17,400 bases of DNA from a virus (taxonomy: Duplodnaviria > Heunggongvirae > Uroviricota > Caudoviricetes): the IMG/VR virus record IMGVR_UViG_2802429221_000010; one strand, given 5' to 3'. Below, piece by piece: positions 1,216 to 15,993 of this stretch. Made by a program: the position numbers and the translations under genes. The notes beneath the pieces are model-generated. The model was not told the DNA's origin. It made no database searches and saw only the letters and a program-made list of their open reading frames with translations. How positions within the stretch are numbered: the stretch's first letter is position 1; every line of letters begins with the position of its first letter.

Positions 1216-1245
1216 TTACATTGATATTCTTATATAGGTGATATC

Positions 1246-2154
1246 ATGCTTCCTGAAAGATTGTTTTACACTCTGAATAAAGCAGCTTTTGAGATAAATA
1301 GAGATGTTTATGATTTATTTCACTATATATCAATCGGAATGGTTGATGTAGCAATAAATATAGACTTGTCAGATCTTATTGAAGAAGGAAGGGTCTCTGT
1401 TCGTGGTAAATTTAATAAAGAAATATTTACTAATACAAGAAGTAAAAAATTCAGACATCGCTCTAACTATGCAAAAATAAGTGAAGTTATTAGTTGCGAA
1501 TCTAATGGAAAGTTAAAACATAGAAAAGTCATTAAGGCATGTGGTCTTTTTTCTGTCCGAACATCCAATCTTTTTAAGATGGATGCTGATTTTGATAACG
1601 TGAAAGAATTTGTTGTTGATAGGCTATATCCAGTGAGGCTTCCATCTTTTACGCACTATAACTTGGAGGATTATAACCCACGAGTAATTTTAATTGATGG
1701 TGGTATAAATATTAAAACAAGCGATTTAGTTATAACTAAAAGTGAATTATTTTTGCTTAAAAATGGTGGAGTGACAATAAATTGGAGATTAAACCAAGTC
1801 AAATCATCTATGGATAAGTATCCCGATTTTATTAAAAGTAAAATGGATGGGGGAAATTCACGTAGTTGCGAAACAATTAACAAAATGGTGGGTAAGCCTA
1901 GAAATATCTATCGAAATGTTATTGTTGATGTAGCGAAAGCTACTCGTATTTCTTATCCGTGGAGCCATACGACATTAATTATCAATAAAATACACTCCTT
2001 GCTTTATTCTGTTGATGCTGTTAATACACCTAAAGTAGGTACAATTAGAAATATTCTTTGTTCAGAAGGAATTGGCAAAACAGGAGTGGAAACAAAAGAT
2101 GATTTCCGCTTGGTTATCCCAGAGGAGTACAGAAAATTATTTAAATTGAATTAA
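1246..2154 (+). CDS. Hypothetical protein, 302 aa, AT-rich orphan gene; function unknown (candidate cargo)
   Basis: Stop-bounded ORF with AGGTGA Shine-Dalgarno 4 nt before the ATG, 30 bp after the int stop. Visibly AT-rich (roughly one-third GC by eye) against about 50% GC in int and alpA. No motif recognised. Confidence 0.6.
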   Translation: MLPERLFYTLNKAAFEINRDVYDLFHYISIGMVDVAINIDLSDLIEEGRVSVRGKFNKEIFTNTRSKKFRHRSNYAKISEVISCESNGKLKHRKVIKACGLFSVRTSNLFKMDADFDNVKEFVVDRLYPVRLPSFTHYNLEDYNPRVILIDGGINIKTSDLVITKSELFLLKNGGVTINWRLNQVKSSMDKYPDFIKSKMDGGNSRSCETINKMVGKPRNIYRNVIVDVAKATRISYPWSHTTLIINKIHSLLYSVDAVNTPKVGTIRNILCSEGIGKTGVETKDDFRLVIPEEYRKLFKLN

Positions 2155-2252
2155 ATTGTATTTAATTTAAATTTTAATATTTAATTTAAAAAATACATCC
2201 TTCTCTTGTGTATATTCCAGAAACAGACTTTTATATGCATCAGGAGAAGTGT

Positions 2253-2453
2253 ATGGATAAGCAAAATTTAATTCGTATGCCAGAAACCATGCGCCGTACA
2301 GGCTATGGTAGGGCATGGATCTATAAACTCATTGCCCAAGGGCGTTTTCCTAAACCTGTAAAAATTGGCTCGCGAGCGATTGCTTTCGTTGAGAGTGAAA
2401 TTGATGAGTGGATTAATCAGCGTATTGCGGAATCACGCGGAACAGCTACCTGA
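2253..2453 (+). CDS. alpA: AlpA-family transcriptional regulator / excisionase-like HTH protein
   Basis: Translation LIRMPETMRRTGYGRAWIYKLI...IAFVESEIDEWINQR parallels E. coli AlpA (ILRLPAVIQKTGMARATIYDWL...VGWIEAEIDEWLSQR). AGGAGA Shine-Dalgarno precedes the ATG at 2253; the ORF track start at 2208 lacks one. Confidence 0.85.
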   Translation: MDKQNLIRMPETMRRTGYGRAWIYKLIAQGRFPKPVKIGSRAIAFVESEIDEWINQRIAESRGTAT

Positions 2454-2531
2454 TTAAATGGCTACGGGGCCAGAAGCCCCAGCTATCCACCAGCAAATAA
2501 AAAGTAACTTAATTCGATAGCAGGAGTTTTT

Positions 2532-3332
2532 ATGAAACTGCGAAAAACGCCCGTACAGGGGCAGGGCTTCGTTCGGCCTGAAAACCAGAATCTGCAAAAT
2601 TTCGGCGAAATTATCCCGATTATTTCCGGCGTTATTGGCGGGAGTGAAACCACTATTGTTAGCGCCAGAGCGTTACATAAGGCGTTAGGTGTAGGGCGCG
2701 TTTTCCGTTCGTGGATCAAGGGGCGCATTGAAGAATACGGGTTCACGGAAGGCGTGGATTATGAGGTTGTTGAATATTTGAGCCGACCCGATCCGGTGAG
2801 CGCAAAATCTCGCCAGCAAACCGCTCTTGAGTACATCATCACAGTGAACATGGCAAAAGAACTGGCGATGGTCGAACGCACCGAACAGGGCCGCGCCGTT
2901 CGTCAGTACTTCATCAAATGCGAGGAGGAGCTACACAAGGTAGCGCCAGTGCGTTCCGCAGCGTTACGCCGGGAACTGAAAGCCCGTATCACAGTTGCCA
3001 GCTACTTTAAGCCAATGTGTGCCGCGTTGGAGGCGTACCGGGCTGAACTGGGTAAAAACACGTTCCAGCACCACTACACCACGGAAGCCAATATGCTGGC
3101 GCGTATCGTGCTGGGTGGCATGACTGCAAAACAGTGGGCGCAGGCGAACGGCATCACAGGCGAACCACGCGACCACATGAGCACGTTGCAGCTTGAGCAC
3201 CTTTCTTACCTTGAGCAGAGCAATATCACGCTGATTGAGTTAGGCCTGGACTACCACCAGCGGAAAGCTGAATTAATTCGTCTTTCGCAGCGTTGGTTAG
3301 CCCGTCGCATGGAGGAAAACAGCCATGTGTAA
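2532..3332 (+). CDS. Phage antirepressor-like protein (AntA/AntB-type N-terminal domain)
   Basis: 266-aa ORF with AGGAG Shine-Dalgarno. Segment SARALHKALGVGRVFRSWIKGRIEEYGFTEGVDYEV resembles the AntA-family core. Domain assignment is from memory, not a search. Confidence 0.65.
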   Translation: MKLRKTPVQGQGFVRPENQNLQNFGEIIPIISGVIGGSETTIVSARALHKALGVGRVFRSWIKGRIEEYGFTEGVDYEVVEYLSRPDPVSAKSRQQTALEYIITVNMAKELAMVERTEQGRAVRQYFIKCEEELHKVAPVRSAALRRELKARITVASYFKPMCAALEAYRAELGKNTFQHHYTTEANMLARIVLGGMTAKQWAQANGITGEPRDHMSTLQLEHLSYLEQSNITLIELGLDYHQRKAELIRLSQRWLARRMEENSHV

Positions 3333-4863
3333 CGCTCTGACCGTTACAAAAAGAGAAAGCGCCCCGTTGCCGGAGCGCCTTTGTGAACGAATAGCCTACT
3401 GCGCCATATTGCTTACTGTCTACGAGGCAGATTATAGCGTTGTGGTCGCACAGAGTGAAGGCGCTGATCACCGTTACTACAGCACGCCAGAAATGCAGAA
3501 TATTTTGCTGCAAAATGTCGTTGGTCACGCTGTCCGGAAAGCAAAAAATTTTGCTGGTAGCGCGACTGATGCGATTTTGTCAGGTCGCCAGGTGATGATC
3601 AATCTGATGTCTAATTTCGTTCTGGATAAAACAAAGGCGACCGCAGAGGGCCACCAGTGGGAAAGCTACACACTTGAACACATCGCCAACAATGCCAGAT
3701 TTGCGGCTGGTGGGCAATGTGATCAGTGTGCTGGCTTGCTGGTGGGCTATTCCTGCTCTTTAACATTGCCATGCCGCGATGTTTTCCAGGTATGCGACCC
3801 CATTTTTGTGCGCCTGTACTCTTTAAGGAATTTCTCAAGGATAAACGCACAGGGCGCGAATCTGTCTGACTCATATTCGTACGCTATCTTTCTGCGCTGT
3901 CTTTTCCGTGCCGGTGATGGTGTATTGGTTGATTCTTTGTTGGTCATTCTGTGTACCTGTAAAGCAATGCGCCGGAGTTCCTCACACCACGGCGATGATA
4001 GTTATTATTCTGATTCTTTGGCCTTGCGGCGCTGGAGTTCTTCACGTGCGACGGTGACGAGTTGCCCGATCTCCTCGACAGCTTTGACTCCGATTTTTTC
4101 CACCTGCGCCAGTGCATTGAGCGAAGAAACCAGGGGATTTTCTCCGCTTCCTTCTGCCTGGCGGCGGGCGATCTCACCACGCATGGCGGTTACTATGAAT
4201 CCGGCGTTGCTTTCGCCGTCCAGTTTTACGGATTCCATGCCTTCAAAAGCATCATGTGGGATACGAATTGAAATCTGTTTTGATTTGTCGTTGATAGTGT
4301 TTTTTGCCATGTGCATTCTCCTAAACAAAAGATGTGATTCAGTATACACAAAAAAGAATCACAAAAAATACTTGACCTGTGATTCAGTTAAATTTAATTT
4401 AAATCACACCTCAGTAAGAGGATGTAAACGACAACGCCCCGAACTGTTTGCGGCAGTAGCGGGGCGTCTAACCAAACCGTTAAATGAGGTAACGATTATG
4501 GCTGGGGCACAGCATACCCAAACTCACCCTAAATTTATATACACCTTCCTGGCGGTGCACCGTGATTGCATGGCTGACGGTAAAAACACTGTTCATGTAG
4601 CCGCCGATACGCTGGTTGATGCCTGCGAGATGCTCAATGACATGGGCTATATCTCGGCAACATGGAAAGGGCGCGAAGAAAACACGTTGTTTATTCAGAA
4701 ATGCGAAAACAATTTTATCTGGCGTTTTATCGCCCTGAGTACGGCACAACCGCGCGTGATTCACATCGAGGCCACCAGCGAACAGGAAGCACGCCAGCAA
4801 TCTCCTGATGGCTGCGTGATGGTATTCGCTGCCCATATTCGCCAGGAGGTGGAGCATGTGTAA
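3325..4863 (+). CDS. ORF of uncertain extent: translationally coupled start, plausible coding N-terminus, remainder probably not a real 512-aa protein
   Basis: ATG at 3325 overlaps the upstream stop (ccATGTGTAAcg). First roughly 120-160 codons have protein-like composition. From about 3800 the translation turns Ser/Cys/Arg-rich and low-complexity, runs antisense through the RHH-like gene (4005-4310) and its operator region, and ends in frame with the better-supported start at 4498. Confidence 0.25.
   Translation: MCNALTVTKRESAPLPERLCERIAYCAILLTVYEADYSVVVAQSEGADHRYYSTPEMQNILLQNVVGHAVRKAKNFAGSATDAILSGRQVMINLMSNFVLDKTKATAEGHQWESYTLEHIANNARFAAGGQCDQCAGLLVGYSCSLTLPCRDVFQVCDPIFVRLYSLRNFSRINAQGANLSDSYSYAIFLRCLFRAGDGVLVDSLLVILCTCKAMRRSSSHHGDDSYYSDSLALRRWSSSRATVTSCPISSTALTPIFSTCASALSEETRGFSPLPSAWRRAISPRMAVTMNPALLSPSSFTDSMPSKASCGIRIEICFDLSLIVFFAMCILLNKRCDSVYTKKNHKKYLTCDSVKFNLNHTSVRGCKRQRPELFAAVAGRLTKPLNEVTIMAGAQHTQTHPKFIYTFLAVHRDCMADGKNTVHVAADTLVDACEMLNDMGYISATWKGREENTLFIQKCENNFIWRFIALSTAQPRVIHIEATSEQEARQQSPDGCVMVFAAHIRQEVEHV
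4005..4310 (-). CDS. Ribbon-helix-helix-like small DNA-binding protein; candidate element repressor
   Basis: Translation MAKNTINDKSKQISIRIPHDAFEGMESVKLDGESNAGFIVTAMRGEI has a beta-strand then helix pattern typical of RHH (CopG/Arc) folds. AGGAGA sits 6 nt before the ATG at 4310 on the minus strand. Divergent from the + strand gene run, with palindromic repeats between. Confidence 0.6.
   Translation of the reverse strand: MAKNTINDKSKQISIRIPHDAFEGMESVKLDGESNAGFIVTAMRGEIARRQAEGSGENPLVSSLNALAQVEKIGVKAVEEIGQLVTVAREELQRRKAKESE
4330..4412. promoter_or_regulatory. Divergent promoter/operator region with TGTGATTC inverted repeats
   Basis: TGTGATTC (4333-4340) and GAATCACA (4355-4362) form one palindrome; TGTGATTCAG (4377-4386) and AATCACA (4402-4408) form a second. 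A TTGACC -35-like hexamer (4371-4376) lies between them, with a possible -10 TAATTT about 17 bp downstream. Confidence 0.45.
4498..4863 (+). CDS. Hypothetical protein, 121 aa
   Basis: ATG at 4498 preceded by GAGGT 7 nt upstream, located downstream of the promoter/operator region. Globular-looking composition. Stop overlaps the next gene's start (gcATGTGTAAtg). Confidence 0.5.
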   Translation: MAGAQHTQTHPKFIYTFLAVHRDCMADGKNTVHVAADTLVDACEMLNDMGYISATWKGREENTLFIQKCENNFIWRFIALSTAQPRVIHIEATSEQEARQQSPDGCVMVFAAHIRQEVEHV

Positions 4864-5080
4864 TGCAACATGGCCTGATGCAGCGGTAGACGCTATCAAA
4901 ACGCTGATGGATTCACTTATTGAGATTTCTGCTATCGCTGGTGTGGCGCATAAACACGCAGCCAGAGAATCAGAATGCATCTCCCATTATTTAGCATTTG
5001 TGCAGCTGAAAGCCGATCAGGCACTGGATAAGGCCGGAAAAATTATCATGGCTGATGTGCAGGAGGTGCACCATGCATAA
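4856..5080 (+). CDS. Hypothetical small protein, 74 aa
   Basis: AGGAGG 6 nt upstream of the ATG. Start overlaps the upstream stop and its stop overlaps the next start (ccATGCATAA). Begins MCNA, like the ORF at 3325. Confidence 0.5.
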   Translation: MCNATWPDAAVDAIKTLMDSLIEISAIAGVAHKHAARESECISHYLAFVQLKADQALDKAGKIIMADVQEVHHA

Positions 5081-5438
5081 CCTGTCAATTTCTGACCTTA
5101 ACAGCATTCAGTTTGACGAGAAATTTACCGGGCAGCTACTGGTCAATGTGGAGAATGGACGCGTGGTAAGTAATTATCACCTGCCGGATGGTGCAATTGC
5201 CGGAAGCGTTGAAGCATTGCTGGAGCTGGCAGAACGTGCGCGACTGATTAAGCCGTTAACGTGCCATCACGATGATAATCTGCATTTTACCGGACGCATG
5301 GTGAGTCACTACGAAAACGGCGTTGAAGTATCCTGCGAACGTCTGCGTGATGATTGCTGTTTCGGCACATTGCCGGAATTTATCGAATTGCTGACCAGTT
5401 GCGGTTATCAGGTCATTCAGGGGGGGAAACATGCGTGA
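5073..5438 (+). CDS. Hypothetical protein, 121 aa; paralogue of the 5657-5857 product
   Basis: AGGAGG 6 nt upstream of the ATG at 5073. N-terminus MHNLSISDLNSIQFDEKFTGQLLVNVENGRV aligns with MHNHEAHVPVVLNVPDDFTGRVLVYLDKGKV of the 5657 ORF. Confidence 0.6.
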   Translation: MHNLSISDLNSIQFDEKFTGQLLVNVENGRVVSNYHLPDGAIAGSVEALLELAERARLIKPLTCHHDDNLHFTGRMVSHYENGVEVSCERLRDDCCFGTLPEFIELLTSCGYQVIQGGKHA

Positions 5439-5664
5439 TGATCGTTTTAATTCCCTGAAACAGGAGTTTGATGGCGCACCGGAAGATACATCGGGCGCAT
5501 TGTTGAACGTTGCTGACATGATGAAAGCTGCATATTTTCTTATCAATACCAATGGCTACAAGTCAGAGGGTGAAATGATTCTTAGTATTGCGTCGGACTA
5601 TGCGGAATATGTGGCAGAGGCGCGTTACAGAAGAAAATTCACGGAGGATATAAGCCATGCATAA
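5431..5664 (+). CDS. Hypothetical small protein, 77 aa
   Basis: GGGGGG before the ATG. Start overlaps the upstream stop (ATGCGTGA) and stop overlaps the next start (ccATGCATAA). Confidence 0.5.
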   Translation: MRDDRFNSLKQEFDGAPEDTSGALLNVADMMKAAYFLINTNGYKSEGEMILSIASDYAEYVAEARYRRKFTEDISHA

Positions 5665-5857
5665 TCATGAAGCGCATGTACCCGTAGTGCTTAATGTGCC
5701 AGATGATTTCACCGGACGCGTACTGGTTTACCTGGATAAAGGGAAAGTGAAATCACAACGCCGACTGAAAAGTAATGAAATTTTGGGTTCTCCTGAGTTT
5801 TTTTCTGAACTCTGTATTCGTGCAGAAATAAAACCGGAACTGCTGACAGGAAAATAA
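5657..5857 (+). CDS. Hypothetical small protein, 66 aa; paralogue of the 5073-5438 product
   Basis: GGAGGA 8 nt upstream. Shares the MHN start and DFTG(Q/R)(L/V)LV motif with the 5073 ORF. Confidence 0.55.
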   Translation: MHNHEAHVPVVLNVPDDFTGRVLVYLDKGKVKSQRRLKSNEILGSPEFFSELCIRAEIKPELLTGK

Positions 5858-5861
5858 AACC

Positions 5862-6152
5862 ATGAAAAAGAAAAATTCTGGCTTTACTGCCAGCGGTCTC
5901 TCTCGGCCTGAAATCAGACACGGAGATATTTACCGCGACACCATACGTGGGGGACGAGCGGTTATTTGTCATGTTACGCCAGAAAATATCACCTACCGCC
6001 GTGACGCTTATGAATATGACTGCATAATGCCGTGCCGTCAGTTTGAGCGTGATTTTATTCTGGTGGAGAACAAACAACAGGAAGCGACGAGACGTGCAGC
6101 CATGAATATTAAAAAAATCCGGGCAATGTTGGTTGCGGGAGGTAAGAAGTGA
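5862..6152 (+). CDS. Hypothetical protein, 96 aa
   Basis: Stop-bounded ORF immediately upstream of the primase; its TGA overlaps the primase GTG start (GTGA at 6149-6152). Confidence 0.5.
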   Translation: MKKKNSGFTASGLSRPEIRHGDIYRDTIRGGRAVICHVTPENITYRRDAYEYDCIMPCRQFERDFILVENKQQEATRRAAMNIKKIRAMLVAGGKK

Positions 6153-7954
6153 AAAACGCACCGAGTCTAAAATATCAGCCGAAGGATAAATTCACTGAGG
6201 TAATCATTTTTGCCGGGACGGATGCTTACGCCCATGCTCAACACTGGATTGAAAGTGAAGGACGAAAACACGGCGATAACGTGCCTCCTGTTTACCTGGG
6301 GCCAAAGCAACTGGCAGACCTGGCGAATATCCGCATTATTGACGAGAAACGCCGTTTTGCGCGTGTCTATATCGCGGGGGAGATAGAGCCAATCCAGATC
6401 AATACTATCGCTGAAAAGCTGGCGCTGGCTGGCGTACAGGACGCGAAATTATACAAAGGTATCACCGACCGGGAGCCGGAAAACTGGCGCGACTACCTGC
6501 AACGGATCCGCGAACAGGCAGAGAGTGGGGAAGTTTCAGCGATGAAATTAGCCACAAAAAATATTGACCTACCCAGGCCAGCACTAAATCAGATGGGAGC
6601 CAGCCAGAGAGGGGAAGTGTTACTTGAATATTATGGAAGAGCACTGGCTATAAATGATGATTCTGATGTAGTTCACCATTACAACGGAATTGTCTGGGTG
6701 CCTGTATCTGATAAGGAACTCCAGCGGTCTATGGCGAAGATTTTTATTGATGCTGGAATCAGTTATTCGCAAAACGCCATTAAATTTGCCGTAGACACAA
6801 TGAAATTGAGCCTGCCTGTTATGGGCGGGGCAGACAGGAATCTTATTGGATTCAGTAACGGGGTATTTGATACCCGGACGGGAAATTTTCGGGAGCATAA
6901 CAAAAATGACTGGTTGTTAAATGCCAGTGAATTACCGTTCAGCCCACCAGCAGAGGGGGAAACGCTGGCAACACATGCGCCGAATTTCTGGAAGTGGCTG
7001 CGTCGTTCGGTGGCAGATAATGATCGTAAAGCTGATCGCGTACTGGCGGCATTATTCATGGTACTGGCGAACCGGTACGACTGGCAGTTATTCCTTGAGG
7101 TAACAGGCCCAGGCGGAAGCGGTAAAAGTGTGATGGCTGAGATTTGTACCATGCTGGCGGGTAAGGCCAACACAGTATCGGCAAGCATGAAGGCTCTGGA
7201 AGACGCAAGGGAACGCGCGTTAGTAGTTGGCTTTTCGCTGATTATCATGCCGGATATGACTCGCTACGCTGGCGATGGTGCAGGAATTAAGGCAATTACT
7301 GGCGGCGACAAGGTGGCAATTGATCCGAAACATAAAGCCCCCTACTCCACACGTATTCCGGCAGTAGTGCTTGCGGTAAACAATAACGCCATGTCATTCA
7401 GTGACCGAAGCGGGGGGATCTCGCGTCGTAGGGTGATATTTAATTTCTCTGAGGTCGTACCGGAGAACGAACGCGATCCCATGCTGGCGGAAAAGATAGA
7501 AGGCGAACTGGCGGTAGTGATTCGCCATTTGCTAACACGATTTACCGACCAGGACGAAGCTAAAAGACTACTTTATGAGCAGCAAAAATCAGAAGAAGCG
7601 CTGTTGATAAAGCGCGAAGGTGATTCACTGGTGGACTTTTGCGGCTATCTGATGTCGTTGGTTAAATGTGAAGGAATGATGGTGGGCAATGCGGAAATAG
7701 TGCCATTTAGCCCGAGGCGATACCTGTATCATGCTTATTTAGCCTATATGTCAGCGCATGGCCTGGGAAAACCAGTATCACTGACACGCTTTGGTACTGA
7801 TATGCCAGGAGCTATGGCGGAATACGGAAAGGAGTATAAGCGGGCTAAATGCACTAAAGGCCCGGATAAAGGGCGAGTGATAACAAATGTTCTGTTAGAT
7901 GATGATGCTGATGGCTGGTTGCCAGCAGCTACAGGGATTAACGACAGAACATAA
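6149..7954 (+). CDS. Primase-helicase-type replication protein (P4 alpha / D5-like NTPase)
   Basis: 601-aa ORF with Walker A GPGGSGKS at 7106-7129 and a downstream hydrophobic strand ending in acidic residues (LIIMPDM). The N-terminal half is long enough for a primase-like domain. Immediately followed by an iteron array. Confidence 0.88.
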   Translation: MKNAPSLKYQPKDKFTEVIIFAGTDAYAHAQHWIESEGRKHGDNVPPVYLGPKQLADLANIRIIDEKRRFARVYIAGEIEPIQINTIAEKLALAGVQDAKLYKGITDREPENWRDYLQRIREQAESGEVSAMKLATKNIDLPRPALNQMGASQRGEVLLEYYGRALAINDDSDVVHHYNGIVWVPVSDKELQRSMAKIFIDAGISYSQNAIKFAVDTMKLSLPVMGGADRNLIGFSNGVFDTRTGNFREHNKNDWLLNASELPFSPPAEGETLATHAPNFWKWLRRSVADNDRKADRVLAALFMVLANRYDWQLFLEVTGPGGSGKSVMAEICTMLAGKANTVSASMKALEDARERALVVGFSLIIMPDMTRYAGDGAGIKAITGGDKVAIDPKHKAPYSTRIPAVVLAVNNNAMSFSDRSGGISRRRVIFNFSEVVPENERDPMLAEKIEGELAVVIRHLLTRFTDQDEAKRLLYEQQKSEEALLIKREGDSLVDFCGYLMSLVKCEGMMVGNAEIVPFSPRRYLYHAYLAYMSAHGLGKPVSLTRFGTDMPGAMAEYGKEYKRAKCTKGPDKGRVITNVLLDDDADGWLPAATGINDRT

Positions 7955-7981
7955 TACGAAATTTATAAGCTGAAACGTAAA

Positions 7982-8319
7982 GGTAGACGGTTGGTAGACA
8001 GATTCACTTAACCCTCTACCAACCATCTACCAATTAATATTTTGAATTATAAAGATATTTTCAATGTGGTAGAGAGGTAGACAGTTATTTCTATATTCCT
8101 AAACCACGGGGGGTATATAAAAAACAGATAGTTAAGGGGGCATTTTTTAAATTTCTCTTTTAACTGTCTACACTGTCTACCATTTAGTAAAAATCATTAA
8201 TTATCAATGTATTAATGCGGTAGACCGTTGGTAGACAGTTTGCAGATTGTTTTTTTGTTATGTGTTAATAACATTAAATAAATCAATCAATTATATCGGT
8301 AGACAGTTGGTAGACAGTT
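7982..8319. repeat. Iteron array / putative replication origin of the element
   Basis: Six copies, in both orientations, of a doublet of GGTAGACAG-like units: ggtagacggttggtagacag (7982-8001), inverted copy (about 8012-8033), ggtagagaggtagacag (8069-8085), inverted copy (8163-8181), ggtagaccgttggtagacag (8219-8240), ggtagacagttggtagacag (8298-8319). Interspersed with AT-rich spacers, directly 3' of the primase-helicase gene. Confidence 0.7.
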
Positions 8320-8337
8320 GTAACGATGGGGCAAAGC

Positions 8338-8868
8338 ATGACTAAGCTGACCATTAACAGAAAACCAAAAGGTATTTACGGCACGCCGCAGAAAACGACG
8401 CAGGCGGCGCAGCAGCAGGATAAAACCACATCGGCGCATAAAGTGATGCCCGGTAACCAGAAAGCGCAGCAGAAGCCCACAGGGGCAACACCGTGGCGGC
8501 ATATGACCAAACGGCAGCGAAAAAACCGCAGACGCGTTAACCGCCTCACTGAGTTGTGGCCTGAATTATTCAGCCGGGAAGCACCGAAGCCGCTTAAGGT
8601 GGGGATATTCGACGACCTGATGCAGGATCTCGCCGTCAGGGGGCTGGCATTCGGGCCAGGGGCATTGCGTGCGACGCTGGCATCTTATGCGCAGTGTCCG
8701 CGCTATTACCGCGCCTTAATGGCTGGTGGGGTACGCTACGACCTGAAATGCCAGCCGTGCGGCGAGGTGACACCACAGGAACAACAGGACGCAGAAACGC
8801 GGCTGGTTGCGCTGAATGAGAAACGCAAACGTCAGCGTCGGGCAGCAAAGGAGAAAACAGGCGCATGA
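8338..8868 (+). CDS. ProQ/FinO-domain RNA-binding protein
   Basis: Segment PLKVGIFDDLMQDLAVRGL...LRATLASYAQCPRYYRALMAGGVRYDLKCQPCGEVTPQEQ aligns with E. coli ProQ N-terminal domain (PLKIGIFQDLVDRVAGEM...[39 protein letters not shown]). N-terminal half is basic and low-complexity. Start could be 8326 or 8338. Confidence 0.8.
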   Translation: MTKLTINRKPKGIYGTPQKTTQAAQQQDKTTSAHKVMPGNQKAQQKPTGATPWRHMTKRQRKNRRRVNRLTELWPELFSREAPKPLKVGIFDDLMQDLAVRGLAFGPGALRATLASYAQCPRYYRALMAGGVRYDLKCQPCGEVTPQEQQDAETRLVALNEKRKRQRRAAKEKTGA

Positions 8869-9152
8869 TTCACGACAGCAAAGCGGAAGCTCTGGAAGCG
8901 CGTGGTCTGTACCGGAGAGCGGCGGCGCGGTGGGCTGAGGTCATCATGCTGGCGAATGATGACAAGGCACGGGAACAGGCGGCAAAACGTCGCGCGGAAT
9001 GTATCCACAAGGCAGCACGCCCACCAGCAAGGCAGGATAATTTCGGGGAGATGCGCAAAACCATCAGCCGGGCACATGCCGGGATGGGATTACATCAGCC
9101 CAATGGTGAGGCATTCAGGAAATACCAAAAAAAGAACAATTGTAGTCAGTAA
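8865..9152 (+). CDS. PerC-family transcriptional regulator-like protein
   Basis: 95-aa ORF with ATGA overlap onto the upstream stop. N-terminal SKAEALEARGLYRRAAARWAEVI resembles the PerC/Pch signature as I recall it; not checked by search. Confidence 0.6.
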   Translation: MIHDSKAEALEARGLYRRAAARWAEVIMLANDDKAREQAAKRRAECIHKAARPPARQDNFGEMRKTISRAHAGMGLHQPNGEAFRKYQKKNNCSQ

Positions 9153-9286
9153 CAGAGGATGGGATTCTCTTGGTTTTTTGTTGATGCTTTCTGAGGAAAT
9201 CTACTACGTTGCTGAGCAGATGAATATTCAATTGCATCTGGGTTCCTGATAAGATTAATCTGAATATTTTCATTTGGAATAGGGAT

Positions 9287-10429
9287 ATGAATAAAACTTT
9301 AATTGCAACATTAGTCGGTATAGTAATGTTAACCGGATGTGGGCCAGAAGAGTTAACTCCAGAACAGAAACAGGAAGTAGCGGCTCTTAAAGCTGAACTG
9401 TCGCAAACGGAAGGTGAAATATCAGCAGCTAAGGAAGTTGACCAGCAGTTTTCTGGTGGGTTGATAAAAAATCTGACAACAGCAAGACTGGAAATATTAG
9501 GAACTAATAAAGCGCTTTTGGAACAGCGTATTAATGCTATTGAATCAGGCGCCAAAATTGATGTTGTTGTATCTGGAGTAAAACCTGATCCTGAGCTTGC
9601 GGCTTCAATTAAAACTGAAATTGACAGCTTAGATGCAAAAATCAACGAAGCCAAAGCTGATGCTCGTCAGTATAGTGGTGGTCTGATAAAGGTACTAAAA
9701 TTATCTACTGTTGCCACTGAAGAGCAGACTATGGCAATGTTGCAGCAAAAGTACCTCACAGCCAAGTATGGCCTCGCTGAAGTTAAGCTGGCATCAGTAC
9801 AAGATAATGACGCAAAAAACAGTACTGAAACGGAAGTAACAGCCAAAAATTCCCAAGATCAACTTCCTTTACTCCCGCCAGCGGATGGTCCGTTTGGCTT
9901 AGAAGCCGGTCTTACACAGAAAAACATCGAAGATATGATCGGTGCTAAGCTCAAGCCACTACCAGACAGTGTGAATCTGTATACTTCTGATAAATTACCG
10001 AAGCAAAACGCAGATTTTGAAATGTATGGTTTGTTGATCTCCCCGAAAGCTGGTTTATGTCAAATACGGGCTTTAGGAAAAAATATTGATACTGATAGCT
10101 ATGGATTGGCTCTTAAATCCAAGTTTGAAGAATTGAGTAATTCTTTAAGTTCTCTGTATGGAAAGGCTGATACTACAGACTTTTTGCTGGCTGGTTCAAT
10201 TTGGAAAGATCCTCAGGACTGGATGAGGGGGCTAAACAAAAAAGAACGCTTCTTATCTGCCACATGGAAAGGAACAAAAGAAATACCATTAAAAAACAAT
10301 ATTGATACTATCTCTATTGAGGCCAGAGCGAACAATTCCACTCAGGGATATGTCTATCTGCAGTACTCATTTACAAATGACGAAATTTGTCAGGCAGAAA
10401 TTGAAGGGGCGAAAAAAAGTTCCCTTTAA
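9287..10429 (+). CDS. Lipoprotein, 380 aa, with internally repeated coiled-coil-like N-terminal region; function unknown
   Basis: Signal peptide with lipobox MNKTLIATLVGIVMLTGC. Two copies of the motif (Q/R)Q(F/Y)SGGLIK(N/V)L within helical, charged segments. AGGGA Shine-Dalgarno. Lower GC than the replication module. Confidence 0.8.
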   Translation: MNKTLIATLVGIVMLTGCGPEELTPEQKQEVAALKAELSQTEGEISAAKEVDQQFSGGLIKNLTTARLEILGTNKALLEQRINAIESGAKIDVVVSGVKPDPELAASIKTEIDSLDAKINEAKADARQYSGGLIKVLKLSTVATEEQTMAMLQQKYLTAKYGLAEVKLASVQDNDAKNSTETEVTAKNSQDQLPLLPPADGPFGLEAGLTQKNIEDMIGAKLKPLPDSVNLYTSDKLPKQNADFEMYGLLISPKAGLCQIRALGKNIDTDSYGLALKSKFEELSNSLSSLYGKADTTDFLLAGSIWKDPQDWMRGLNKKERFLSATWKGTKEIPLKNNIDTISIEARANNSTQGYVYLQYSFTNDEICQAEIEGAKKSSL

Positions 10430-10442
10430 ACAATCCGTGCAA

Positions 10443-10468
10443 AGCCCCTTAGTAAGGGGCTTTTATAT
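10443..10468 (+). terminator. Rho-independent terminator
   Basis: GC stem GCCCCTT / AAGGGGC with a 3-nt loop, followed by TTTTATATAT, 14 nt after the lipoprotein stop. Confidence 0.6.
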
Positions 10469-10494
10469 ATTAATGTCCAACGGGGGGGGATTAG

Positions 10495-10818
10495 ATGAAA
10501 GATAATCTAGAAAAACTAATTGAAAATACTTTAAAAGATATTCTATTAGCTAATGCTGCTCTAACATTCATTTTTGCAATACCAATGGCTATTATCAGTA
10601 GGCATGGGATGGGCATCACAATCTGGTTTATAACTGTGCTCATTGCACCTGCTCTGTGTGCAGTAGGTGCATGGCTTGTATCTCGAACATTCGGCCATGC
10701 TGAGGAGTTTTTTCATCGTCGGTGGGCTAAGCGAATTTATGTTTTTTATACTCTTGCGGCTGCCGAGTTTTTGCTTGTGTACTCAATCGCGCAAATAATG
10801 AAAAATCTGATGAAATAA
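10495..10818 (+). CDS. Small inner-membrane protein, 107 aa, two or three predicted transmembrane helices
   Basis: GGGGGGGA Shine-Dalgarno. Hydrophobic stretches ALTFIFAIPMAIIS, ITIWFITVLIAPALCAVGAWLV and IYVFYTLAAAEFLLVYSIA. Confidence 0.7.
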   Translation: MKDNLEKLIENTLKDILLANAALTFIFAIPMAIISRHGMGITIWFITVLIAPALCAVGAWLVSRTFGHAEEFFHRRWAKRIYVFYTLAAAEFLLVYSIAQIMKNLMK

Positions 10819-11096
10819 TTAACAAGTTATTATCATGGGGTTTGTGGCTGTTAACCTGCAGTGAGGCGACAATCGTGTATTTATAAAAACTTCCCCTTTT
10901 CACTCCCCGCTGTTTCTTCTGCTATTGCCTTTATGTTTGCATGCACCAACATCTGCCATACTTTTGCAGAAAAATCAGAGCATTCAGTGCCGAAGGTTGG
11001 TTTATTGATGCTTTTCGTTTCATTTATTGCAATTGTCTCTGGTATCATTTCAATTTGTGCAATAATTGCAATTATTGTCATTCAGAAGGGATCATC

Positions 11097-11264
11097 ATGA
11101 AAAATCACGGAGTAAAGCCAGTTTTACTTTCCCGGAGGCAGATCGAAGCCCTGCAACGCATCCAGGACGAAGAGCGTCAGAAATCTGTGCTTGGTGTGGC
11201 ACCGTCGATTCATGTTATCGCTCGGCAACTGATGGATAAGGCACTTAAAGAGGTGAGACTGTGA
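11097..11264 (+). CDS. Small putative DNA-binding protein, 55 aa, RHH-like
   Basis: AAGGGA 6 nt before the ATG at 11097. Sequence VKPVLLSRRQIEALQRIQDEERQ fits a strand-helix RHH pattern. The longer track ORF starting at 10941 has an implausible Cys/Phe-rich N-terminus. Confidence 0.45.
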   Translation: MKNHGVKPVLLSRRQIEALQRIQDEERQKSVLGVAPSIHVIARQLMDKALKEVRL

Positions 11265-11331
11265 AATTAAATATCAGAGTGGATAAACCCAGCTATGGCA
11301 GAAAAAAGAGAACAGCGAGGCATTCAGGGCG

Positions 11332-11532
11332 TTGCTGGTGGAAAATCTTCAGCACCGGTTCAGTGGAGAGTTGCCTGATGCTCTAGGGAAGAAACTGGAA
11401 TCCCTGACGGTGGAAATTGGCGATTATGGCTTTGTTGATGTTGAAAGCACGACTGCCAACACAGAAATCGTAAAACAGGTCGTCAATGATGTAATGAAAA
11501 CCACGCTTAGCCAGCCATCCTGGCGCAACTGA
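11332..11532 (+). CDS. Small hypothetical protein, about 64-66 aa, non-ATG start
   Basis: Open frame with only TTG (11332) or GTG (11338) starts. Acidic, globular-looking translation. Followed by hairpin AGGGGC...GCCCCT at about 11541-11566. Confidence 0.35.
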   Translation: MLVENLQHRFSGELPDALGKKLESLTVEIGDYGFVDVESTTANTEIVKQVVNDVMKTTLSQPSWRN

Positions 11533-11632
11533 ATCAGTAAGGGGCGGTTATTGCCCCTTTCCTCCATACCCACAACGCATTCCCTTTCCGCATGAAATTA
11601 TTTTTTTATCGTATATGCATGAGGTGAGCTAC

Positions 11633-12160
11633 ATGTTGATGAGTAAAGCCGAATACGCCAAATACAAAGGCGTAAGCCGCCAGACAGTTTACGACTGGAT
11701 CGAGAAAGGCGAAGTGATCATGTCTGGCAAAAAAATTGATGTGGATGCGACAGATCAGCGGAACAGCCCACCAGCACAGGGGAAAGACACCGTTTCTGAA
11801 ATGTGGCCAGAGAGAACGCTGGAAATGACGTGGGGCGAGTTCTGGAAAGCAGTTAAGGCCAGAGACGGTAAAATCCCTGCACCAGTAACGGACGATGACA
11901 TACGGCAGCGTGTGCTGAATGCAGCCGGGGAATTAGGCTGGGAAGTGCACTTTCTTGATGATGGTGCTATCTGCCTTGAGGATGATGAAGGACAGCATTA
12001 CTTTGAACAATACAATTTGCGGGGTAATGCCTGGCTGGCAATTCATATGCTGCGTTGTGAACTATGCTATGTTGCCAGCGATTGTCCCGATGAACAGGAC
12101 ACATGGAGTGAGGCAGGACTAAACGCCCTGGCTGAATGGGAAAAATCAGGCCATCAATGA
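11633..12160 (+). CDS. HTH-domain protein, 175 aa; excisionase/terminase-small-subunit-like N-terminus
   Basis: GAGGTGAG Shine-Dalgarno before the ATG at 11633. N-terminus SKAEYAKYKGVSRQTVYDWIEKGEV is an HTH of the type seen in lambda Nu1 and excisionase-like proteins. Immediately followed by a direct-repeat array. Confidence 0.7.
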   Translation: MLMSKAEYAKYKGVSRQTVYDWIEKGEVIMSGKKIDVDATDQRNSPPAQGKDTVSEMWPERTLEMTWGEFWKAVKARDGKIPAPVTDDDIRQRVLNAAGELGWEVHFLDDGAICLEDDEGQHYFEQYNLRGNAWLAIHMLRCELCYVASDCPDEQDTWSEAGLNALAEWEKSGHQ

Positions 12161-12164
12161 CCTC

Positions 12165-12458
12165 AAAAAGTGTCAAGTTGAGCAGCTTGCCAGGTTGACA
12201 CTTTACACTCTGAACGCGAAAAAGTGTCAACCTTGCTGGAAGCCGCGCCATTACTGGCCTTGTACCATATTCACCACGTCAAAAAACCGAAAAAATCGCG
12301 AAAAGTGTCAAGTTGCCATGCTTAGAAATGCCAGGGATGGTTAAGTTTTGTTAAGGTTTTTCCCGAAAAAGTGTCAAGTGTGTCAATCTGCGATATTAAG
12401 ATTTATTAAGGCCTTAAGCCGGAAAGTGTCAACCAGCCCCCTAAGATTTCCTAAGGTG
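12165..12458. repeat. Array of AAAGTGTCAA direct/inverted repeats interleaved with TTAAGNTTT-N-TTAAGG repeats; putative protein-binding region
   Basis: AAAAGTGTCAAG at 12165-12177; inverted TTGACACTT at 12195-12203 (9-bp arms, 18-bp spacer); further copies near 12219-12231, 12300-12313, 12366-12380 (double) and 12422-12433. Second family: ggttaagttttgttaaggtt (about 12339-12358), attaagatttattaaggcc (about 12394-12412), cctaagatttcctaaggtg (about 12440-12458). Confidence 0.6.
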
Positions 12459-12464
12459 TAAATC

Positions 12465-12647
12465 ATGACCATCACCGAAGCCGATATGCTGGAGATGATC
12501 CGCAGCATTGCCGGAGTCAAACAACCAGCAAGCAAAATTAACAGGTGTTCAGCGCCTGTTTCCGTTGTGCTGCAACAGGAATGCCACCAGCGGCGGGAAA
12601 ACGAAAAGGCGTACCAATGGACGAAGCCAAACAAGTTACGGCGTTAA
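12465..12647 (+). CDS. Small hypothetical protein, 60 aa
   Basis: AAGGTG 7 nt before the ATG, directly downstream of the repeat array, followed by a hairpin. Confidence 0.4.
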   Translation: MTITEADMLEMIRSIAGVKQPASKINRCSAPVSVVLQQECHQRRENEKAYQWTKPNKLRR

Positions 12648-12655
12648 TTAGGAAT

Positions 12656-12680
12656 ACGGGCTGAGATAGCCCGCATTTTG
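12656..12680. terminator. Hairpin, possible bidirectional terminator between convergent genes
   Basis: CGGGCT-gagat-AGCCCG stem-loop followed by ATTTTG on the + strand, between the + strand ORF ending 12647 and the - strand ORF ending 12682. Confidence 0.4.
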
Positions 12681-12681
12681 C

Positions 12682-12939
12682 TCACAGCTTGTTATACATT
12701 TTTCCAGCGAAGTCATGAACCGCCTGAGGAATATCCGACGGCGTACCTAGCATTGTTGGCGCATCGGAAACAAAGAACATGATCGCTTCTTTGATTTCTT
12801 CGAAAGATGGGGTAGGGGTAATGCGCTTGAGATTTGAAACCGCCCGTCGGAACTCCGCCGTATCCATTGGATGCCTGCTAAACCACGTTGGACGAGAAGC
12901 CCAACATTTTACTGCTTCTTTCACCTTAGTGTTCATCAT
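12682..12939 (-). CDS. Hypothetical protein, 85 aa
   Basis: Minus-strand ORF with AAGGAAAA Shine-Dalgarno just upstream of ATGATG. Convergent with the + strand genes; no family recognised. Confidence 0.5.
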   Translation of the reverse strand: MMNTKVKEAVKCWASRPTWFSRHPMDTAEFRRAVSNLKRITPTPSFEEIKEAIMFFVSDAPTMLGTPSDIPQAVHDFAGKMYNKL

Positions 12940-13424
12940 TTTTCCTTTTGCTTATTACCATACAAAGCATGTGGAAAGAGAAGATTAACATGGAAAATAT
13001 GGAGTTGGTGAGCAAATGAAAGGTACTGGTAGCCTGTCGACATCTATCAGCATGATGATGTGAGGCCGTATCAGTGGCGGAAACCGAACAGGCTGCGACG
13101 GTGAGCGGAGCGTTACGGTAAGCCAACAGCCAAGCCAAACATTAAGTCTACAGGTAAGGTTGTTTTTTTGCAGGTGGCATTAATTTGTATGTTGGTTTAA
13201 GGAGCATTTTTATTGAAACCCGCCTTAATTGGTCGTTTTTGTATGTCATGTGGTTCTAAGATAACCGCTAAGTTAAGCAACAGATGTGGTTGGGGGCGAG
13301 CAGGTTAACAGTCTATCTATCAAATTTAATGTTTATTATTTGATAATTAGTGGTTTTGTATCCAGTTTTGTGAGAGATTGTTAATGCATTTAACATCTGA
13401 TGGTTTTTACTTAAGGGTTACATA

Positions 13425-14480
13425 GTGTCTACACAGAAAATTGAAGAAAAATTTACATCTGCACAAGATGCATTAGTAATTCAGCAATCCGATTTATCAT
13501 TAAAGTCACTTTCTGATATGGTTGAATTAGATGCAGTAGATATAAGTCCAAAATATCAGAGAAGGGAGCGTTGGACTGCGGAGAAAGAGTCAAGTTTGAT
13601 TGAATCATTCTTGCTAAACATCCCGGTCCCGCCAATTTATCTCGCAGAGGATAGATATGGAATCTACTCAGTAATAGATGGAAAGCAAAGAATAACGGCT
13701 ATAAATAAATTTTTAACAAATAAAATGAAACTCGTGGAATTAGAAAAATTTCCAGAGTTAGAAGGGTTCTATTTTAAAGACTTACCCCAACCTCTTTCTA
13801 ATGCATTAAGCATCCGACCATATTTAAGAGTGGTCACATTATTGCGCCAATCTGACCCAGACTTAAAGCATGAAGTCTTTCTGAGATTAAATAAAGCAGG
13901 AGTATCTTTAAATTCTCAAGAGATAAGAAATGTTGCTTTTAGAGGGGATTTAAATGATGCTCTTATTGAACTGTCGGATACTCCATTTTTAAAAGAAATG
14001 CTTAAATCAAATAAAAATACTAAAATTTACCAAGAAATGGGAGATGTTCAGTTTGTGTTGAGGTTTTTTACTGTGTTTGATTTGTGGGAAAATTTTCCAG
14101 GTAATATGGATAAAGCTATGGATCTATTTATGGCGAAAAAATCTCGCAGCTCAATTCAAGATGTTAACGAAATGAAGCGGTTATTTTTGCGCTCAATTCA
14201 TTTTTGCGAGACGGTGTGGGGTAATGATGCATACAAAAGAATTGATAACAGTCAACGCGTAATTCAAGGTATGTATGATGTCCAGATGGTTTGCCCTGCC
14301 TTTTTACAACAAAATGAATATGATCATGCCATGGAAAATGCTGCTGATGTAAGACGACTCTTAGTTGATGAACTTTCAAATAATGCGGATTTTCTTGAAT
14401 CAGTGACTCAGTTCACGTCTAACCCAAGAAATATTGCATATAGAATATCACACTTCTGTGACCTTCTGAGAAGAATTTAA
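13425..14480 (+). CDS. DUF262-domain protein (ParB/Srx-like NTP-binding domain as in GmrSD-type enzymes N-termini)
   Basis: GTG start with AAGGG 7 nt upstream. N-terminal motif ISPKYQRRERW (13548-13580) fits the DUF262 P-x-(F/Y)-Q-R...W box; DGKQRITA (13677-13700) fits the DGQQR box. AT-rich. Stop TAA 14478-14480 lies 1 nt before the next ATG. Confidence 0.85.
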   Translation: MSTQKIEEKFTSAQDALVIQQSDLSLKSLSDMVELDAVDISPKYQRRERWTAEKESSLIESFLLNIPVPPIYLAEDRYGIYSVIDGKQRITAINKFLTNKMKLVELEKFPELEGFYFKDLPQPLSNALSIRPYLRVVTLLRQSDPDLKHEVFLRLNKAGVSLNSQEIRNVAFRGDLNDALIELSDTPFLKEMLKSNKNTKIYQEMGDVQFVLRFFTVFDLWENFPGNMDKAMDLFMAKKSRSSIQDVNEMKRLFLRSIHFCETVWGNDAYKRIDNSQRVIQGMYDVQMVCPAFLQQNEYDHAMENAADVRRLLVDELSNNADFLESVTQFTSNPRNIAYRISHFCDLLRRI

Positions 14481-14481
14481 T

Positions 14482-15411
14482 ATGCCTATTCCAGCGAAGG
14501 ACAATTTGCTAAAAAGAATCCTGTCTGTAGATAATGCAACTCAACTACCAGCACTTATCGATAAAGATGTTATGCAGGAACAACACAATATCACAGCTAA
14601 TCTTCTGAGAAAAGGCTTAGGTATAGTAGCATTTAATATTCTGGAAGATTTTATAAAATCCAGAACTATAGAAATGTTTGATTTTATATCTAATGCACGT
14701 GTGAGATTCGAGCAGTTACCCGATTCTTTTAGAATTGCAGCAACAAATGGTGCATTAAGAGGATTAGTATATCAGGCTGGATTAGAAAAGAAAAATAATG
14801 GAGATTGGTTGGCACTAATACATTCTGAGGCCAAAAGTATTTTTTCAACGTCGCAATTTCCTTATACATTATCTCGAGTATCACTTCTTTCAGATGGTTC
14901 TAATGTTGGACATGATGATATACCAGAAGTAATGAAGTGTCTTGATATAACTGGTGGGTGGAAGACATTACAAAAAATATCGAACGATATTGGTGGTGGT
15001 ACATTAGATCTGAATGCTGCTTATAAAAATATGTTTTTCGATAGAAATAGATGTGCTCATGAAGCAGGTTTTAATTATCCATATACCTCTCTCGATAATT
15101 CTTTAAATGACATTGTTACTATTGCTTCTGCATTTGACATAGCGTTAACTACTCGTTGCAGGTATATAGAAAAACAACCTAATTTACCGCTTTCAGCTCA
15201 TAAAGAAAAAGATCCGTTTTCATATCGGTTTTTAATCGCTGATGGAGATGTTTTTCGAGAGAAAAAATCATTAGAACCTGGTGCGAAAACAATAAAAAAA
15301 TGGAGTAATATCTCTGATGCACAATCTAATTTAATTCCTAAGCTAAGACTCCGCGATGAGTTTTTGATTTATATAGGAAAACAGAGAAGGCTTAGTGATT
15401 GGTATTTGTGA
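14482..15411 (+). CDS. Hypothetical protein, 309 aa, with a HEPN-like R-x4-H motif; partner of the DUF262 gene
   Basis: Tightly coupled to the DUF262 gene (TAAtATG). Contains FDRNRCAHEAG (R-x4-H at 15043-15060), compatible with a HEPN RNase active site. No DUF1524/HNH-like (D/E)H-x-x-P motif seen. AT-rich. Confidence 0.75.
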   Translation: MPIPAKDNLLKRILSVDNATQLPALIDKDVMQEQHNITANLLRKGLGIVAFNILEDFIKSRTIEMFDFISNARVRFEQLPDSFRIAATNGALRGLVYQAGLEKKNNGDWLALIHSEAKSIFSTSQFPYTLSRVSLLSDGSNVGHDDIPEVMKCLDITGGWKTLQKISNDIGGGTLDLNAAYKNMFFDRNRCAHEAGFNYPYTSLDNSLNDIVTIASAFDIALTTRCRYIEKQPNLPLSAHKEKDPFSYRFLIADGDVFREKKSLEPGAKTIKKWSNISDAQSNLIPKLRLRDEFLIYIGKQRRLSDWYL

Positions 15412-15844
15412 TATTTTTTATATAGGGTTTTATATTTTTGTAAAATCCTATAATCCATAAAATGAATATTATATTTAATAATGTCTTGATTAGGCTAACG
15501 GCATAATTATGATAGGTGATTTTGTTATAATAAATTTTTTGAACAAAAATAGTTGTTTACCCCAACTCCTCAAACACCAAAATAATTTACTGCAGATCAC
15601 TGTACGTTGCCTTCATATCATTTTGGGCCACATTCTTGATATTCGTCAGATTAGGTATACTGGTAAGACTATTTGTTGATGGCGGCGAGTCACAACCGTT
15701 CCCTAGGTCTACCACTCAACTACAGAGGCTACTACGGTAGCCACTACGATTAACTACGCGATCCCGATATGGTGATTCCTATATCGGGTTATCTGTGCTC
15801 ATCCATCAGCTTGATCACGGATAACAGGGGATGTGTAATTCCCA

Positions 15845-15872
15845 AGCGAGTGATAAATGTGTATAGAAATGT
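15845..15872. repeat. Tandem direct repeat (AATGTGTATAGAA x2) in AT-rich intergenic region
   Basis: aaatgtgtatagaaatgtgtatagaatt read directly, upstream of the - strand HilA-like gene; a possible regulator binding site. Confidence 0.35.
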
Positions 15873-15993
15873 GTATAGAATTTATTTTAGAACTCGCGAA
15901 TGTGCCTTTATTACTGGTTTTGGGAGGTGTTGTGTTGTTCCCTTCGCCGCTCCAGTTTTTTTACGCCCTCATATATTATTTCTTTATAACGCA

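Follow-up and report, generated by a model that had tools for sequence, protein, structure and literature searches.

A probable attR junction of a PICI-type satellite in the glyU tRNA gene of Escherichia marmotae, with a recurrent one-base lesion in the displaced tRNA fragment

What occupies a stretch of viral DNA that codes for nothing recognisable and yet lies between two well-formed genes? The window analysed here is a stretch of 17,400 nucleotides from the virus record IMGVR_UViG_2802429221_000010. Its gap at 15412-15993 is bounded by two convergent 3' ends, the stop codon of a plus-strand gene (14482-15411) and the stop codon of a minus-strand gene (15994-17400). A sequence-only reading had described the gap as a possible element boundary or regulatory region with no convincing ORF. 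The ORF list and Pfam agree on the latter point. The longest ORF touching the gap (15769-16056, 95 aa) has no Pfam match and spans the junction of element and chromosome into the opposite-strand gene, and the rest reach at most 56 aa. A tRNA gene scan of the gap found nothing. Rfam 15 gave no match at gathering thresholds in the whole window and no family match in the gap even at E<=1, where the sole signal is a chance snoRNA match (E 0.54). The gap is a composite of four pieces: the tail of a cargo cassette, the right arm of a satellite, a tRNA-derived core and chromosomal DNA. We are highly confident that it is the attR of a PICI-type satellite of ~16 kb that is inserted in the 3' end of the tRNA-Gly gene glyU of Escherichia marmotae.

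The core of the junction is a displaced 3' end of glyU. The last 18 nt of glyU are TTCCCTTCGCCCGCTCCA, and window positions 15938-15954 (plus strand) read TTCCCTTCGCCGCTCCA, so that 17 of 18 nt are matched. Comparison with the intact tRNA resolves this copy as TTCCCTTCG-CCGCTCCA, i.e., the tRNA 3' end minus one C of the CCC run of the acceptor stem. It is the single match to the core in the window at <=2 mismatches, and 200 shuffles yielded none. The sequence-only reading had expected the 3' end of the integration target to recur as a direct repeat, either here or in the gap at 12950-13424. It does recur, and it does so here; the other gap has no copy of the core. Island-free genomes place the boundary at the same point. 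In nine loci with an identical YgeH-like protein, the CCA of glyU is joined directly to gtttttttacgccctcatata..., which is the window sequence from 15955 onward. In the empty-site loci among L006-L015, glyU is followed by gtttttttacgccctcatat..., identical in some and with 1-3 mismatches over 45 nt in others. Two E. coli flank types likewise have an empty glyU joined straight to the right flank. The insertion is precise. The 39 bp at 15955-15993, an intergenic stretch that separates glyU from the stop codon of the ygeH-like gene, therefore belong to the host, and the end of the island falls inside the core. For annotation it is useful, if not surprising, that the right end of the island is fixed to within the 17-nt core and that the gene pair to its left is attR-proximal cargo. 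Strand exchange would take place at this 17-nt copy of the tRNA 3' end.

The other end of the satellite is next to glyU itself. Window position 1 is the ATG of a P4-type tyrosine integrase gene (1-1215, plus strand; Pfam Arm-DNA-bind_3, Phage_int_M and Phage_integrase), the product of which acts in trans on the att site in the gap. In L020 and L026, which have an identical integrase, 163 bp separate an intact upstream tRNA-Gly glyU from the int start codon, and in E. coli F9792 the same integrase adjoins tRNA-Gly (glyU) downstream of actS. The island begins at glyU, shortly before window position 1, ends at about 15947 and is roughly 16 kb long. The integrase gene is followed by that of an AlpA-type excisionase/regulator (2253-2453, plus strand), a candidate directionality factor. 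The identical L020 gene matches Phage_AlpA, and the PHROG assignment is 'excisionase and transcriptional regulator' (E 3e-12). Further satellite genes encode an AntA-like protein, an Icd-like protein, a DUF4222 protein, a primase with D5_N/DUF5906/Pox_D5 domain matches (6149-7954), ProQ and PerC. A gene set of the int/alpA/primase/ProQ/PerC type belongs to Gram-negative PICI-type satellites (PMC6092414; PMC10111431). As in PICIs, int, alpA and primase stand in this order on an island in the ~10-16 kb range at a specific att site. The capsid-size and regulation genes psu, delta and sid of P4-like satellites gave no match in a non-exhaustive scan of 10 ORFs per library. Window positions 979-13219 are 95-98% identical to islands in many E. 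coli genomes, and the contigs that have the exact integrase of the window come from Escherichia marmotae or unclassified Escherichia. Assemblies of E. marmotae with this island include GCA_002965885.1 and GCA_013368865.2. Strain ETEC1747 has a single element at its glyU locus.

Directly after int lies an uncharacterised ORF of 302 aa (1246-2154, plus strand) with 28-33% GC and no Pfam, PADLOC or PHROG match. Relatives have other genes in this slot, which looks like a second variable cargo slot. A 456-bp segment at 12592-13047, which holds an 85-aa ORF on the minus strand (12682-12939), has been inserted when compared with L001-L004. It is also found in E. coli APEC E123 (L005) and forms a small variable module to the left of the cargo slot. 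A 512-aa protein (3325-4863, plus strand) matches the 'transcriptional repressor' family phrog_6196 (E 1e-28) over its last ~50 residues only, and its first ~440 residues match nothing.

The left part of the gap, from 15412 to about 15675, is the AT-rich 3' tail of a variable anti-phage cargo cassette (13171-15675, approximate ends, plus strand). The cassette comprises a DUF262/GmrSD_N (NsnA-like) gene (13425-14480, plus strand; Pfam, and PADLOC NsnA with E 7e-65) and the RiboL-PSP HEPN gene (plus strand; Pfam and PADLOC) that borders the gap at 15411. It is absent from E. coli SA31-1, where the slot is almost empty: backbone equivalent to 13048-13170 is followed by 66 bp and then by 15709 onward. 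The backbone realigns from about 15676. The attR-proximal slot of relatives holds DUF4747 with a partner gene, GapS1, superinfection exclusion protein B, or nothing, and the cargo of the window has no match in 5,426 complete E. coli genomes. These boundaries account for the composition of the gap. GC content is 15-38% at 15420-15660 and about 50% at 15660-15780, and the GC-rich stretch that had been noted at about 15675-15790 is indeed present. It is the resumption of the satellite backbone, with ~45-50% GC, after the AT-rich cargo and is no separate functional element.

The same pair of DUF262/NsnA-like and RiboL-PSP-HEPN genes is also found inside a P2-like prophage of Cronobacter dublinensis (L056 6002-8023). 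The Cronobacter copy has 80% DNA identity to the window from 13426 to 15450, through a hairpin past the stop codon. Since cassette and hairpin recur together in that prophage, the cassette has moved between P2-like phage and satellite. The hairpin (15421-15452, plus strand) begins 10 nt past the HEPN stop codon and folds at -14.3 kcal/mol (z -3.7). The Cronobacter hairpin has the same fold, with two pairs changed on both sides and one G-U changed to G-C. The window hairpin has only 3 G-C pairs and no U-tract, and it is likely the transcript-end hairpin of the cargo operon. The remainder of the tail (15453-15675) is an orphan AT-rich spacer that is present in L058 and L063 and absent from the Cronobacter copy. 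It has no ORF of more than 56 aa, matches neither phages nor complete E. coli genomes, and goes with this cargo in this satellite lineage only.

Between cargo and core lies the conserved right arm (P arm) of the satellite att site (15676-15937, plus strand), recognised by homology across E. coli genomes. In 56 complete E. coli genomes, unannotated DNA matches positions 15712-15958 at 80-93% identity, and the identity given for the arm itself is 88-93%. In all seven loci inspected, this DNA is located at glyU, immediately before the chromosomal flank, and the region is therefore the right att arm of the satellite. Within the arm, the features named in the sequence-only reading exist at positions that differ by 8-10 nt from those given there. 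What was described as a 13-bp tandem repeat at 15845-15872 is a repeat with a period of 12 nt at 15855-15880, AAATGTGTATAG x2.2 (x2 = 15855-15878; TRF score 52). The hairpin CCCGATAT-N10-ATATCGGG has its arms at 15763-15770 and 15781-15788 and not at 15771-15796. Two features had escaped notice, an inverted repeat GTTATCTGTGCTCA-N10-TGATCACGGATAAC at 15788-15825 and the 17-nt core at 15938-15954.

Repeat search and conservation single out the tandem repeat as a doubled arm-type motif, tgTGTATAGAaatgTGTATAGAa (plus strand), and as a candidate site of integrase binding. Only the doubled motif and the core are invariant among the copies from E. coli, E. marmotae, Salmonella diarizonae, two Rahnella species and IMG/VR contigs. 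In all distinct attR copies (13 or more), exactly 60 nt separate the motif from TCCCTT, and this spacing is kept in Rahnella and in an IMG/VR contig even though the intervening sequence is not conserved. A second doubled copy, agTGTATAGTaatgCGTATAGGa, is co-oriented with the first and lies 116-117 nt after the CCA in all copies of attL, for which the left arm was rebuilt from L020. The two motifs are separated by 211 nt from start to start across both arms. The locus combines a direct repeat of a tRNA 3' end, an empty site, an integrase at attL and arm-type repeats on both arms.

By its position and by analogy, the tandem repeat is most likely an arm-type site that is bound by the N-terminal domain of the integrase, and the Arm-DNA-bind_3 domain of this integrase counts for such a role. 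In the published HE-PICI attP, two co-oriented copies of tgTGTATTGCantgTGTATTGCa are found, one 81 bp upstream and the other 132 bp downstream of the centre, and the authors allow for AlpA or another protein as the binder of such motifs (PMC10111431). In the mechanism that we propose, the arm-binding domain of the P4-type integrase would sit on the doubled GTGTATAG motif, and the right-arm motif together with the matching doubled motif beside int would assemble the recombination complex. Such binding and a present-day ability of the island to excise are inferred. A fifth, inverted copy of the motif (ATGTGTATAG, minus strand) overlaps the int start codon (L020 3989-4003; window 1-3 and upstream), which suggests that the integrase may autoregulate its own expression. 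The right arm also has four ACTAC repeats with a phase of 12, 12 and 10 nt (15719-15757, plus strand), a candidate binding array for an accessory protein of the AlpA/Xis-like kind. A similar TCTAC/ACTAC array with a 10-nt phase is found in the P' arm of attL, and the P-arm array is absent from L003, L004, L033 and L034. In two Rahnella species (L030 159-2863; L031 1681-4384), an intact tRNA-Gly and an attR copy are only 2.7 kb apart, and these mini-remnants retain the doubled motif and its 60-nt spacing.

The phage lambda attP has a 15-bp core that is flanked by the arm-type sites P1 and P2 and P'1-P'3. The glyU satellite is similar in having two arm-type sites on one arm and two direct sites plus one more on the other, the extra site being the inverted copy at the int start codon. 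In both, the integrase has a separate arm-binding N-terminal domain. Unlike lambda, the satellite targets a tRNA 3' end and has a 17-18-nt block of identity, and the IHF consensus has no match in its reconstructed attP. The satellite phage P4 reportedly integrates at the leuX tRNA. It shares with the glyU satellite a P4-family integrase (Arm-DNA-bind_3, Phage_int_M and a catalytic domain), a tRNA 3'-end target, repeated arm motifs and an identity block that is ~20 nt long, whereas the glyU satellite has no cos of the P2/P4 type and carries the PICI-like genes alpA, D5/DUF5906 primase, ProQ and PerC. Phage satellites and P2-like phages are also said to have hotspots of defence genes. The cargo slot of the glyU satellite, placed just inside attR and with differing cargo in each relative, does not differ in kind from these, and an attR with a defence-cargo slot is a further case of an already known PICI-type architecture.

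Among the closest known systems are also the HE-PICIs and related Gram-negative PICIs, which have a doubled motif with a 12-nt period (tgTGTAT...antgTGTAT...), as here (Mageeney, Williams et al., 2023; PMC10111431). HE-PICIs and the glyU satellite alike have one doubled motif per arm, co-oriented and at fixed distances from the crossover. From start to start, the motifs lie 211 nt apart in the glyU satellite versus 81+132, i.e., 213 +/- 4, in HE-PICIs, and the motif core is TGTATAGA in the former versus TGTATTGC in the latter (PMC10111431). The PICIs of that study further share with the glyU satellite a P4-type integrase with AlpA and damage to the acceptor stem of the tRNA fragment at attR. 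With its base-exact spacing, the glyU att site is a further example of the doubled TGTAT-type arm motif, and it extends the HE-PICI arm architecture to a tRNA-targeting relative. The junction itself is a well-defined but ordinary attR of a PICI-type satellite, and its only point of wider interest is the recurrent lesion in the tRNA fragment.

Other functions could be imagined for the same DNA. The sequence-only reading expected the promoter of the HilA-like gene in the gap. This YgeH/HilA-family winged-helix regulator (15994-17400, minus strand; Pfam Trans_reg_C) is chromosomal. Sources place the protein in Escherichia marmotae, one E. coli record is named 'HilA family transcriptional regulator YgeH', and the gene has no match in complete E. 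coli genomes. The gene is host DNA, and it starts at 17400 and stops at 15994, with its 3' end abutting the gap. The promoter expectation is wrong because the gene ends at the gap and does not start there. A regulatory region of this kind could draw on generic AT-richness and on five promoter-like matches, but 3.9 are expected by chance, the promoter and terminator scan of the gap stayed at chance level, and empty-site genomes have only about 190 bp, mostly tRNA gene, between the stop codon of the HilA-like gene and actS. We regard this explanation as having next to no chance of being right. Scarcely better are the prospects of a packaging signal, i.e., of a satellite cos or pac site in the GC-rich patch, where GGCGGCGA resembles lambda cosN GGGCGGCGACCT. 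The resemblance is an 8-nt identity at 15681-15688, and lambda-like cos packaging is known for E. coli PICIs (PMC6092414). Against it, the homologous backbone of SA31-1, cq9 and ETEC1747 does not keep the octamer. Lambda cosN has no match in the window at <=2 mismatches and at <=3 mismatches matches only in int, at chance level, so that no cosN-like match above chance, as would mark a lambda-like PICI, is found in the whole window. The 19-nt cos of the P2/P4 type was likewise absent from the window when up to 3 mismatches were allowed. The satellite may use a packaging signal of another kind. Elsewhere in the window, the N-terminal HTH of a 181-aa protein (11615-12160, plus strand) shows a weak match to the small terminase subunit (phrog_57, E 6e-7). 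This protein may redirect packaging in an Rpp-like manner, which is relevant as no lambda-type cos was found.

More can be said for an RNA role of the right arm. Inverted-repeat search and RNA folding identify three consecutive inverted repeats on the plus strand (15763-15788, 15788-15825 and 15827-15843). Besides any role as DNA, they could give rise to a structured RNA where the rightward transcription of the satellite ends, for instance a 3'-end stabiliser, a terminator cluster or a small RNA. The hairpins lie downstream of the cargo operon, the first (15763-15788) was flagged as terminator-like, and the plus-strand RNA of the stack (-37.7 kcal/mol) folds more strongly than the minus strand (z -4.05 versus -2.5). 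Yet no U-tract follows any of the three. A test for intrinsic terminators at 15421-15452 and 15763-15788 found the stems and, after neither of them, a T-run. The lack of an Rfam match speaks against the structure as well, as does the covariation term, which is unfavourable (+1.89), with changes in relatives that are mostly mismatches; L033 was misaligned in that alignment and its 'compensatory' counts were disregarded. The hairpins are also missing from the L034, L027, Rahnella and Salmonella copies, all of which retain the arm motif and the core. A structured RNA is on balance improbable. The stacked repeats are lineage-specific and not essential to the att site, and they are possibly sites for accessory proteins or a transcript-end structure.

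The lesion in the core is more than a peculiarity of the window. One C of the run is lost (CC) in 10 of 14 distinct attR copies, whereas the run is CCC in all attL copies and in all empty attB sites. The core block is otherwise unchanged, except in one decayed Rahnella copy with a C-to-T change. The deleted state is found on E. coli ygeQ-type, E. coli yecR-type, E. marmotae ygeH-type and Rahnella flanks, and the empty sites of three Escherichia flank types have an intact CCC. Two elements, L004 and L029, are informative here. They are identical over 2000 nt upstream of the core (0/2000 differences) and sit on unrelated flanks, yet one has CCC and the other CC. It follows that the deletion state does not travel with the element. 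The crossover is then probably to the left of the C-run, within about 15938-15947, which would put the deletion inside or beside the displaced part of the tRNA that derives from the host. The lesion would arise at or soon after integration, or by segregation of a heteroduplex. A placement of the crossover from the HE-PICI distances of 81 and 132 was dropped, as it depends on whether the start or the centre of the motif is the measuring point.

Such a deletion agrees with the "attR tRNA-fragment damage" published for PICIs. "Damage" in the acceptor stem of these fragments was described as PICI-specific, and an addiction effect on excision was suggested; damage is listed there for the Pro, Thr, Sec, Ser and Ile2 tRNAs, and Gly is not in the list (PMC10111431). 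The damage is always exactly one C in the glyU satellite, as opposed to deletions of variable length in that study. We tentatively consider, as a possibility with less than even prospects, that the deletion is not random decay. Either the integrase would inflict it at integration, or an attP overlap shorter by one base would be combined with segregation of the heteroduplex to attR. If this is true, a defective tRNA 3' end tends to remain at attR after each integration. Excision would then rebuild a broken glyU, an addiction-like penalty for loss of the satellite, or it would be impeded and the island locked in. With identical elements, three flank types and intact empty sites, the set of lesions offers natural data for testing attR damage by PICI integrases. 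Excision scars, i.e., an empty glyU with the deletion, were found neither among the top E. coli matches nor in IMG/VR. XJ34 was the only scar candidate of the right length, and it was rejected, having an intact tRNA and a T-run deletion elsewhere.

A related question is whether the junction still works. The 1-nt deletion might disable attR, and one could regard the site as a fossil, a non-functional scar of a locked island with this deletion and perhaps further decay. The core does differ from attL and attB by a 1-nt deletion that adjoins the probable crossover, and the 2.7-kb Rahnella remnant with the C-to-T change has decayed further. Moreover, a search of IMG/VR and of complete E. coli genomes brought up no excised circle and no attP or tandem junction. 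However, the arm motif, the 60-nt spacing and the remaining core are perfectly kept, and elements that are near-identical (4/2000 nt) or identical (0/2000 nt) are found in different species or on different flank types. Movement has therefore been very recent, even though most copies carry the deletion, and we consider a fossil site rather unlikely. Recent mobility is also indicated by E. coli L058 (GCA_050053395.1), in which 5624-8534 is 99.7% identical to window 13048-15958, cargo included. This copy has the deletion too, on a flank that differs from that of the window (ygeQ/GH15) and with a different (DUF927) primase backbone, which points to a recent transfer between E. coli and E. marmotae or to recombination at the right end.

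When metagenomes were scanned for the scar pattern, the only matches were high-GC soil contigs that are unrelated to the element, and these were set aside as scar candidates. The search pattern selected for the deletion, and the contigs are thus no guide to its frequency. In three of them (L040, L049 and L055), a full-length tRNA-Gly from high-GC soil bacteria lacks the same C in its 3' acceptor strand. Displaced fragments that begin at the anticodon loop and share this deletion are present on further soil contigs.
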